This document shows, piece after piece, positions 23,162 to 28,319 of a DNA stretch of 64,000 nt; position 1 is the stretch's first letter, and each line of letters starts with the position of its first letter. The DNA is from Escherichia phage PSD2001, in the sequence record OK254198.1; one strand, given 5' to 3'. The position numbers and the translations under genes are program-made. Below the pieces are notes generated by a model, which worked only from the letters and a program-made list of their open reading frames with translations, had not been told where the DNA came from and did not search any database.

Positions 23162-23187
23162 AGGGTTCCACATCTCCACTACTTGAG

Positions 23188-23195
23188 TATAAATA
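23188..23195 (+). promoter_or_regulatory. late promoter TATAAATA for the HNH gene
   Basis: Plus-strand TATAAATA ~26 nt upstream of the ATG at 23222. Confidence 0.5.
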
Positions 23196-23221
23196 TAGTA
23201 TATCACCAAAGAGGACATACA

Positions 23222-25079
<1,858 letters not shown>

Positions 25080-26864: not shown

Positions 26865-26877
26865 AATATTTTCCTCA

Positions 26878-27111
26878 TTAGTAGCGGTTGTAACCCCGGG
26901 GACCAAAAGAGTTGGCACCCAGGCGTTCATCTTTCTTTTTGGCTCTTGCTCTAAACCCAGAATCACCTGTTTGAGCTTTCAGTTCTTTTAACAATTTGGC
27001 CTTCAGGTCAGTAATGAAACCAATCCGGCGGTCTCCCTTGTAGACATAGATTCCGTCATTACTGTCACCATATGCCTGTGTAACTCTTTCATTTGTAATT
27101 AAGTTTAACAT
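26878..27111 (-). CDS. 77 aa paralog of the Alc N-terminal region
   Basis: ITNERVTQAYGDSNDGIYVYKGDRRIGFITDLKAKL aligns with Alc ISNEMIVNEYGDRHDGIYVYKGTKKIGLMTDLRKKL; own GAGGA RBS and ATG. Confidence 0.55.
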   Translation of the reverse strand: MLNLITNERVTQAYGDSNDGIYVYKGDRRIGFITDLKAKLLKELKAQTGDSGFRARAKKKDERLGANSFGPRGYNRY

Positions 27112-27134
27112 GTTTTAGTCCTCATCAGTAGTTG

Positions 27135-27180
27135 ATGGAACCATTATGTATAGAAAGGAGGGGCTTGTACACCCCTTTTT
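27135..27180 (-). promoter_or_regulatory. early promoter cassette
   Basis: Minus strand GTGTACAA inside hairpin GGGG...CCCC, 16 nt, CATAATG. Confidence 0.4.
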
Positions 27181-27182
27181 TA

Positions 27183-28319
27183 TTATTCAGGAAGGATTAC
27201 TTCCGCTTGGTAGTCCGACGGAATGTAAAGTTTATGATTTTTAAGGAAAACTTTATTGATTTGAGCAATCGTTTGTTCAGTTTCCTGTGGGCGTTGATAG
27301 GTGTTCATTAATACGGAGAACAATCCCGGGTATGGTTTGCACAACTCTTGACCTTTAATCGCAAACTCGCGCCGGTCTTTTCCTGCCAGTTGTTTCTGAG
27401 CATCAAGCAACAATCCCAATGTATTGGACAGATAATCCAGATGCGTTACAGTAAAGGCATTAACTTTTTCGCGAGCATAAGTATCGCCAGTAAACATGGC
27501 AATAACATCATCTGCCCCGCCAGCAACAACAACTTCAAACAGTCGCTCATTATTATTAATGGAGTCTTTAGTATGATGCAGAGCACAATACCATTCTGTT
27601 TTCATCTTGAACTTCTGACCACTTGCCAGCTCATAGACGAAGCCTTCAATCTCTTTCATACCACGAACATTCTCAATGCTCGCCGGGTCATATGCTTCAA
27701 CCAGGAAAGGACGGAGCGCAGCATCTTTGAACAGTTCCTGATAAGGAATATATTCACCAGTTTCATTATGGCGAACGTTCAGTAAAATCAGGTCACGTTC
27801 CAGGTAAGGCAAAACAATGCGGTTGGTTGGTGCAACATATTCCATATTGCATGTATAACCAGCTTCAGTGATTTCAGTTACGCGAGCCCTGAATGCACTG
27901 CGATGCTCTTGTTTAAACACCTGCAAGGATTCAGCAGCTTGGGAGCTTTTGATTGACCCTTTGGATTTAAAGGCGATATTAGTCTGGTCCATATAAGTAG
28001 AAACCAAGCTACCATCAGCTTTTGCAGTAACCAGGACAACCTCATCAAGGTTAAGGTCCATGGTCATTGGATTCTCACCCAGATTAAAGAATTTTTCCAT
28101 AGGACGGGCGGCAATGCGAACTGGACCATTGTCATCCATTTCAAACATAATGCCACGACACTCCAGCGCATCATCAAGAAGCCAATCACTATAGGAAGCA
28201 TAGTTATAGCTAAAGATGCGGAACTTAGTTTCAAATGGAGAAACAAAATCCGTATAGAAAAACTTACCTTTATCGGATTCGGCGCAAAGCTTCATTAAGT
28301 TATCATATAATTCAATCAT
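27183..28319 (-). CDS. rnlA: RNA ligase 1
   Basis: 378 aa; strong similarity to remembered T4 Rnl1 (YRIFSYNYASYSDWLL, ALECRGIMFEMD, KADGSLVS adenylation lysine). Confidence 0.9.
   Translation of the reverse strand: MIELYDNLMKLCAESDKGKFFYTDFVSPFETKFRIFSYNYASYSDWLLDDALECRGIMFEMDDNGPVRIAARPMEKFFNLGENPMTMDLNLDEVVLVTAKADGSLVSTYMDQTNIAFKSKGSIKSSQAAESLQVFKQEHRSAFRARVTEITEAGYTCNMEYVAPTNRIVLPYLERDLILLNVRHNETGEYIPYQELFKDAALRPFLVEAYDPASIENVRGMKEIEGFVYELASGQKFKMKTEWYCALHHTKDSINNNERLFEVVVAGGADDVIAMFTGDTYAREKVNAFTVTHLDYLSNTLGLLLDAQKQLAGKDRREFAIKGQELCKPYPGLFSVLMNTYQRPQETEQTIAQINKVFLKNHKLYIPSDYQAEVILPE

Follow-up and report, generated by a model that had tools for sequence, protein, structure and literature searches.

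The window analysed here is a stretch of 64,000 nt from Escherichia phage PSD2001 (OK254198.1), a T4-like phage, and all coordinates count from its first letter. On the minus strand, the genes are arranged in the order nrdA, nrdB, denA, rnlA, mini-alc, alc, pseT.3 ... pseT, where mini-alc denotes a short paralog of alc that encodes a product of 8.7 kDa. The segment 26300–27250 is 100% identical to that of Escherichia phages TH41 and UPEC01, and 93–99% identical to those of SP18, VR7, VR20, VR25, and VR26, all of the genus Gaprivervirus. The original prediction, drawn from the letters of the window, described a stand-alone open reading frame of 77 aa with its own GAGGA ribosome-binding site and ATG. 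Both points hold: the 77 codons are intact, the translation is exactly as quoted, and the GAGGA is positioned 7 nt from the ATG. This GAGGA is kept in 14 of 15 genomes compared; EAWsc9 has GCGGA. The TAA of mini-alc abuts the GAGGA of alc, and the alc ATG follows 13 nt downstream of the stop. The features of the locus are collected in Table 1.

Table 1 Features of the mini-alc locus, in coordinates of the window.
Feature	Position	Strand	Basis or remark
mini-alc (short Alc paralog; alcb of SP18)	26878..27111	-	77 codons + TAA; ORF list, sequence
mini-alc start and stop	ATG 27111-27109, TAA 26880-26878	-	Read from sequence
alc, full-length paralog, 167 aa	26361..26864	-	Pfam ALC 166 bits, full length
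rnlA	27183-28319	-	Directly upstream of mini-alc
mini-alc Shine-Dalgarno GAGGA	27119..27123	-	7 nt before ATG; read from sequence
Alc-type head, codons 1-46 (predicted helix 7-14, beta-hairpin 22-32, start of long helix)	26974..27111	-	48% identity to Alc; model
Linker, basic, glycine-containing, codons 47-62	26926..26973	-	pLDDT low; variable among four lineages
C-terminal motif R-L-G-A-N-S-F-G-P-R-G-Y-N-R-Y, codons 63-77	26881..26925	-	Four-lineage alignment
Leader copy 1 (-31 to -8 before mini-alc ATG)	27119..27142	-	Matches copy 2 at 19 of 24 nt
Leader copy 2 (-31 to -8 before alc ATG)	26872..26895	-	Matches copy 1 at 19 of 24 nt
Promoter-like site TGTACA-17-CATAAT, T4-early-type	27143..27171	-	9/12 sigma-70 consensus match
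GC hairpin AGGGGTGTACAAGCCCCT, terminator-like	27159..27176	-	Just past rnlA stop, overlaps -35

Elsewhere in the window, an open reading frame of 254 aa at 23183–23947 on the plus strand overlaps, on the opposite strand, the 3' end of pseT (23861–24763, minus strand). By position only, it corresponds to the SP18/VR7 reading frame annotated as an intron-like or MobE-like mobile nuclease. It is missing in EAWsc9, MN01, DK-13, and others, which carry a cd.4-like gene there, and the site appears to be variably occupied.

The short Alc paralog is already known, as annotation, in the form of SP18 alcb, VR7 ORF243c, and PHROG 17715. The mini-alc product is 100% identical in amino-acid sequence to SP18 alcb (ADO19581.1), which occupies the same position, and it matches PHROG 17715 over positions 1–77 of 77 (E=2.9e-53), with agreement in genomic position and motif as well. 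The SP18 GenBank record of 2010 names genes alca and alcb and describes alcb as 'similar to N-terminal region of bacteriophage JS98 Alc', and VR7ORF243c (ADR32618.1) is annotated likewise. RefSeq records and PHROG 17715 label the short gene 'inhibitor of host transcription', which is a transferred annotation only. A literature search, with three classic T4 sources outside its reach, retrieved no paper on alcb, the VR7 ORF243c product, or an Alc structure, and no report on expression, binding, or phenotype of the short protein. NCBIfam holds a model for neither mini-alc nor Alc. The present analysis adds evidence for selection, a conserved C-terminal motif, three further lineages, a model of duplication and leader recruitment, the orthology of the promoter, and the rejection of gene calls that extend Alc. 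Among the records, PQ765507.1 (Escherichia phage 212) has its product names off by one gene; mini-alc appears there as 'RNA ligase and tail fiber protein attachment catalyst', rnlA as 'endonuclease'.

Over its first ~63 residues, the mini-alc product is homologous to the N-terminal part of the neighbouring Alc, with 31 of 64 positions identical (BLASTP, E=2e-16). The paralogy asserted in the original prediction also survives the alignment test against shuffled sequences that it had named: the Smith–Waterman score is 142, compared with 27.2 +/- 4.9 for shuffles, and 0 of 5000 shuffles reach 142 (z=23). In the profile search, proposed there for both proteins, Pfam PF17527 (ALC; curated cut-off 25 bits) matches Alc with 166 bits and the mini-alc product with 42.5 bits (E=7e-11), the latter at profile positions 3–62 of 177 only. 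Almost all of the signal resides in residues 1–47. Residues 48–63 resemble Alc only marginally, with ~6% of shuffles matching their score, and residues 64–77 have no similarity to Alc in the shuffle test. In an alignment of 21 homologs, the invariant residues of the Alc head (I6, G16, D20, G21, I22, and G32) and the near-invariant D36 and L37 are all present in mini-alc. The isoelectric point is 10.5 for residues 48–77 and 9.9 for the whole protein; that of Alc is 6.4.

The rest of Alc is indeed absent, as had been claimed. The protein ends at residue 77, residues 64–77 are unrelated to Alc, and the predicted structure has no C-terminal domain. The most conserved motif of Alc, FINxTQPNV, with N91 and P95 invariant, is located in that domain. 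We considered the tail as a remnant or mimic of the NxxxP of this motif, since MAFFT pairs N67 and P71 of mini-alc with N91 and P95 of Alc, but rejected it because the alignment score is below the shuffle mean.

In the AlphaFold2 model of the mini-alc product, pLDDT is ~92 at residues 11–40, 75 at residues 41–50, and <50 from residue 52. The model of Alc (23 sequences; pLDDT 91.7) comprises a helix (residues 8–15), a beta-hairpin (residues 23–33), a highly charged 47-residue helix (residues 34–80), and an alpha/beta domain (residues 87–166). The mini-alc head is predicted to fold autonomously, and the tail is predicted to be disordered. Other lineages have glycines and prolines in this low-confidence stretch, so the helix of mini-alc probably stops near residue 46. 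Outside the family, fold searches with the head retrieved neither a similar solved structure nor a similar viral model, and no functional analog, and a structure search retrieved no solved structure of Alc. We did not retain the label 'PRC domain' used in EAWsc9: Pfam at E<=1 does not reproduce it, and the model contains a two-strand hairpin only.

An Alc-like head is found in 795 of 50,697 phage records. The matches occupy 830 places, which implies that ~35 records hold two copies. In 34 records, from SP18/VR7-type (Gaprivervirus-like) phages, a match spans 80% or more of the mini-alc query. Searches of very large protein sets yielded three diverged lineages, all uncultured: P0026 (78 aa, 45% identity to mini-alc; Logan SRR24146912), P0036 (78 aa, 50% identity; Logan SRR17814994), and a 77-aa reading frame with 45% identity on the contigs L025 and L026 (ENA, Logan). 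P0026 and P0036 match PHROG 17715 over its full length (E ~1e-20), better than the PHROG of Alc. Each diverged short gene is located just downstream of rnlA, and alc is next where the contig extends that far (L018, L025, and L026; the contig L020 covers the start of alc only). Where alc is complete, its product is 76–77% identical to the Alc of the window, whereas the short proteins are 42–49% identical across lineages. The short proteins have similar length and keep all of the head invariants and the C-terminal motif.

Comparison of the rnlA–alc interval with other T-even genomes, suggested with the original prediction, separates phages with and without the gene. In RB51 (T4-type) and JS98 (sister genus Dhakavirus), only 64 nt separate rnlA from alc and the short gene is missing; in phages without the short gene in general, this spacer is 61–66 nt and the promoter lies inside it. 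The inspected sequence of the lineages P0007 (64% Alc identity) and P0008 (60%) contains no short gene either, and the leader of the P0008 lineage, considered as a deleted short gene, consists of an ordinary promoter and leader only. All members of the mini-alc family found lie immediately between rnlA and alc, and they come solely from Gaprivervirus-type phages or the three uncultured lineages. The long repeat proteins P0027–P0029, P0032, P0034, and P0035 were rejected as relatives. They are artefacts of summed weak repeat matches, match a dozen unrelated Pfam families, and almost never have one stretch above threshold. Two 63-aa products, P0031 and BFVD A0A3S7GSC5 (phage vB_EcoM-G28), come from frameshifted alc and consist of the head with a random tail; they fall outside the short-gene family and show that head-only Alc fragments arise repeatedly.

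Alignment of the four lineages reveals a family consensus at the C-terminus of the short proteins, R-x3-N-[ST]-F-G-P-x3-N-[KR]-[FY]-COOH. In particular, residues R63, N67, F69, G70, P71, and N75 of the tail are invariant at 42–49% overall identity, and the chain ends with a basic residue followed by an aromatic one in all four. In the head, residues M1, N3, L4, I5, Y14, G15, D19, G20, I21, and Y22 are invariant, as are G26, R29, G31, F32, D35, L36, and K42. The last 24 residues of mini-alc recur with 100% identity in 32 of 33 phage records (tblastn) and, by the same search, are absent from all other phage records, even at E<=10.

For analysis of selection, mini-alc, alc, rnlA, pseT.3, and denA were extracted from 15 genomes. 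The 77 codons of mini-alc are intact in all 15, as they are in 33 Gaprivervirus-type phage records. The mean pairwise dN/dS is 0.117 for mini-alc, 0.108 for alc, 0.101 for pseT.3, and 0.075 for rnlA. Within codons 48–77, ten variable codons differ by synonymous changes only and one by a non-synonymous change (dN/dS 0.01); with ~24% synonymous sites, the binomial probability of at least ten synonymous changes among 11 is near 5e-6. Purifying selection on mini-alc acts at the protein level and is strongest in the tail. The original prediction had the Alc-like part followed by a basic tail. The tail is basic, as stated, but is no mere appendage, since constraint on the protein is at its strongest there. 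Neither a broken frame nor a dN/dS near 1, as expected of a pseudogene, is observed, apart from one frameshifted metagenomic contig. Judged by conservation and substitution pattern, mini-alc is almost certainly a real gene under selection.

The frameshifted contig (L017; ENA ERZ27275844, contig k141_9694, positions 1612–1740) has a 35-nt deletion within the tail-coding part, resulting in a 75-aa frameshifted product whose reading frame crosses the start of alc. Either this is a naturally tail-less variant, in which case the tail may not be needed in some setting, or the contig was misassembled. Across the 15 genomes, the alleles of mini-alc and of the alc head assort independently, so that the two proteins show no trace of co-evolution. 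The segment 26715–26899, from the 3' end of mini-alc to about codon 50 of alc, occurs as two diverged alleles among the 15 Gaprivervirus genomes, with Alc starting either MDMQ..NEYGD..GTKKIGLM or MNMQ..DVYGD..GSKNVGFL. Synonymous divergence is 0.315 in this block and 0.085 elsewhere in alc. The block looks like a mosaic exchange and is unlinked to the alleles of the mini-alc head.

The arrangement of the two genes points to a tandem duplication. The distance from ATG to ATG is 247 nt in the window and in the lineages of L018 and L020, and 244 nt in that of L025. Ahead of each ATG, the 24-nt stretches from -31 to -8, GGTTCCATCAACTACTGATGAGGA and GGTTACAACCGCTACTAATGAGGA, agree at 19 positions in the same register from the ATG, a score matched by 6 of 2000 shuffles with any offset allowed. 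The two leaders resemble each other within the genome in L018, L020, and L025, too. This spacing, together with the leader identity, indicates that the repeat unit comprised the alc leader and ~72 codons. The second leader copy also encodes the G-Y-N-R-Y of mini-alc, its stop, and the Shine–Dalgarno sequence of alc, an arrangement shared by L018, L020, and L025. In JS98 and RB51, the homolog of the sequence coding for G-Y-N-R-Y and the stop is the alc leader, which is untranslated there. In a neighbour-joining tree of the head region (~50 columns), the four short proteins group together, apart from the resident Alcs, with weak support; taken with the common tail motif, this argues for one old duplication. 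As read from these comparisons, mini-alc very probably arose once, by a tandem duplication of ~247 nt that covered the alc leader and ~72 codons. It would thus exemplify gene birth by partial tandem duplication, in which the parental promoter was captured and the 5' leader was recruited into a conserved C-terminus.

The original prediction also credited mini-alc with its own promoter-like cassette. A candidate site is present, but it is weak by consensus (GTGTAC and CATAAT, 9/12), and it is not private to the gene: by alignment, it is the ortholog of the ancestral early promoter of alc. T4 early promoters are of the type GTTTAC(A/T)-17-TAnnnT and are recognised by host sigma-70. The site in the window aligns with the promoter directly before alc in RB51 and JS98 (GTTTACA-17-TATAGT), and clearer orthologous sites exist in RB51, JS98, L018, L020, L023, and L025. 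Those before the short gene in L018, L020, and L025 we take to be textbook T4 early promoters. A scan for sigma-70 sites is not significant alone (11 sites found, 6.1 +/- 2.7 expected). The 71-nt spacer between rnlA and mini-alc has three substitutions and one length change among the 15 genomes, in which 22–44% of the third-codon positions of the flanking genes are variable. The GC hairpin within this spacer is kept in 15 genomes and, in the scan for terminator-like structures, is not above shuffle expectation.

Comparison of leaders and alignments revealed no copy of the promoter before alc in the window. With the putative ancestral alc promoter before mini-alc and none before alc, both genes are most likely read as one operon. 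That mini-alc and alc form a single early transcript is, on this reading of the sequence, a probable arrangement. In every lineage, the stop of the mini-alc-type gene lies inside or next to the alc Shine–Dalgarno sequence (TAATGAGGA or TGAGGA), 10–13 nt before the alc ATG. Translation of alc would start from its own GAGGA and is possibly coupled to termination on mini-alc.

A GC-rich hairpin, GAACGCCUGGGUGCCAA...UUGGUCCCCGGGGUUAC, can be drawn at 26889–26929 (gene nt 183–223), with ~-23 kcal/mol for an 84-nt segment. Five variable positions of the stem still pair by wobble, three pairs are broken in 2–4 of 8 haplotypes, and compensatory changes number 0. Since pairs are kept and broken about equally, the hairpin is probably a by-product of the codons of the motif (AAY/UUY, GCC/GGU). 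As a candidate RNA element, mini-alc has no Rfam match, a folding z-score of -0.32, and no covariation, and it was rejected as such. In several records (loci L010 and L013; clusters P0003 and P0004), Alc is called as a protein of 189 aa (the mechanical reading frame is 201 aa) from an in-frame start further upstream, inside the tail of mini-alc (26865–26966); two GenBank records carry such a longer call. An Alc of 189–201 aa, or a frameshift fusion, was rejected, as the extension in the alc frame is not conserved and has a stop codon in TH44; the 189-aa gene calls are therefore wrong.

Alc terminates E. coli RNA polymerase on DNA with unmodified cytosine and genetically requires dispensable region I of the beta subunit (PMC2988021, a review of Kashlev 1993 and Severinov 1994). 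We propose that mini-alc is a functional early gene. Its product combines the Alc head with a basic linker, predicted to be flexible, and a C-terminal peptide motif specific to the family, and it lacks the long spacer helix and the C-terminal alpha/beta domain of Alc. The gene would have taken over the place behind the ancestral alc early promoter and would thereby be made together with alc, and its last residues and stop would be encoded by an alc 5' leader that is still in use. If the Alc head is a docking module, the mini-alc protein should go where Alc goes and bind the same partner as the Alc head. The most plausible partner would be host RNA polymerase, because the genetic requirement for beta dispensable region I in Alc action makes it a likely one; the head could instead contact DNA, the C-terminal domain of Alc, or something else. 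The C-terminal motif would provide a second contact in place of the C-terminal domain of Alc, and the protein would accompany or modulate Alc in shutting off the host. This docking mechanism is a tentative suggestion from sequence comparison, to which we give somewhat less than an even chance. For the explanation as a whole, comprising the functional early gene, the duplication, the operon, and the docking companion, we consider the chances evenly balanced. Weighing against it are the independent assortment of the mini-alc and alc-head alleles, the deletion in L017, the poor consensus match of the promoter in this genome, and the fold searches that yielded no functional analog of the head.

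Among the options named in the original prediction (a decoy, a regulator of Alc, or a module with its own target), sequence comparison favours none decisively. Two other readings accept a functional protein and assign it a different job. By analogy with truncated paralogs in other systems, the head-only protein might compete for, or cap, the docking site of Alc, damping or delaying its action in the manner of a dominant-negative 'microprotein', for example to shield phage DNA while it is incompletely modified. All head invariants are kept while the domain bearing FINxTQPNV is missing, co-expression with alc is probable, and the clade reportedly lacks a known hydroxymethylcytosine pathway, so that discrimination by Alc may need tuning. 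However, an inhibitor encoded on the same transcript, upstream of its target, would be an odd design, and pure competition leaves the most constrained part, the non-Alc C-terminal motif, without explanation. An antagonist seems unlikely to us. Similarly doubtful is an effector independent of Alc, in which the head would have become a mere scaffold after the duplication while the basic tail gained its own target, unrelated to the job of Alc. That target could be nucleic acid, the nucleoid, or a protein of the host or of a defence system, at the same low likelihood. The tail is basic, disordered, motif-bearing, and family-specific, and the short proteins diverge faster than their Alc partners, as expected in host–phage conflict; the strict linkage to alc and the retention of the head invariants in four lineages speak against independence, and the motif has no detectable relative anywhere searched.

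The remaining readings deny the protein a role of its own. Translation of mini-alc might merely deliver ribosomes to the alc start, with the peptide irrelevant, as the position of the stop at the alc Shine–Dalgarno sequence in every lineage and the absence of a separate alc promoter would allow. But the peptide is constrained, although the overlap of stop and Shine–Dalgarno sequence is present: third positions vary while amino acids do not, the motif is conserved at 45% overall identity, and alc has its own strong GAGGA. We therefore regard a mere leader reading frame as highly improbable; translational coupling to alc may exist as an extra feature, not as the whole story. Still more remote is the group made up of a non-functional duplication relic, an N-terminal extension of Alc, and a conserved RNA element. 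A relic would fit the clear derivation from a partial duplication but is at odds with a reading frame that is intact in 33 records and four lineages and bears the signature of purifying selection; the longer Alc calls in P0003, P0004, and two GenBank records are set against the unconserved extension and the stop in TH44; and the hairpin at gene nt 183–223 comes with an unremarkable z-score, no compensatory changes, and no Rfam match. This group is already largely refuted. A docking companion overlaps with the antagonist and the independent effector, and the leader reading frame, the relic, the RNA element, and the extended Alc are very improbable even when taken together.

Gaprivervirus phages have been reported to lack known hydroxymethylcytosine enzymes and to keep alc, denA, denB, and dCTPase (PMC12115623; PMC8056088). 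In accordance, the uvsX–imm interval of SP18 (L022, 19000–31000) contains no gene 42 (dCMP hydroxymethylase) and only two hypothetical genes of 176 aa and 47 aa; gene 42 is found at the syntenic position in RB51 (L021, 22000–32000). The confinement of the short gene to a clade reportedly without a hydroxymethylcytosine pathway is a correlation worth testing. A more specific form of our proposal, which we offer as a long shot, is that a separate polymerase-docking head of Alc, joined to a de novo C-terminal peptide derived in part from the alc leader, retunes or redirects cytosine-sensing termination in a clade that lacks dCMP hydroxymethylase and presumably has another DNA modification. If true, mini-alc would amount to a 'domain dissection' of Alc made by nature, and host shut-off would be tied to the kind of DNA modification. 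A selected head-only paralog is also a ready-made reagent for asking what the Alc head binds, and the conserved residues of its C-terminal motif are well-defined targets for mutation.

Set beside known systems, mini-alc is the same gene as SP18 alcb, VR7ORF243c, and the members of PHROG 17715, with no difference. It resembles T4 Alc (PF17527, PHROG 1253) in that its first ~63 residues are homologous, the head invariants are kept, the genes are adjacent in the same phage group, and both probably lie behind the same ancestral early promoter. Unlike Alc (165–171 aa), it has 77 aa, is without the whole C-terminal alpha/beta domain and most of the 47-residue helix, and ends in a basic tail, predicted to be disordered, that bears a conserved motif of its own. 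Its overall isoelectric point is 9.9, compared with 6.4. The frameshifted alc alleles (P0031 and vB_EcoM-G28) likewise yield short proteins with the Alc head, but each is a broken single alc with a random out-of-frame tail, whereas mini-alc has an intact alc next to it and a conserved tail. Truncated paralogs can act as microproteins or dominant-negatives, as the Id proteins do towards bHLH factors and LITTLE ZIPPER proteins towards HD-ZIPIII factors. By analogy, mini-alc is small, keeps one interaction module, lacks the effector part, and derives from a partial duplication; unlike them, it adds a conserved motif not found in its parent and is probably co-transcribed with the parental gene.
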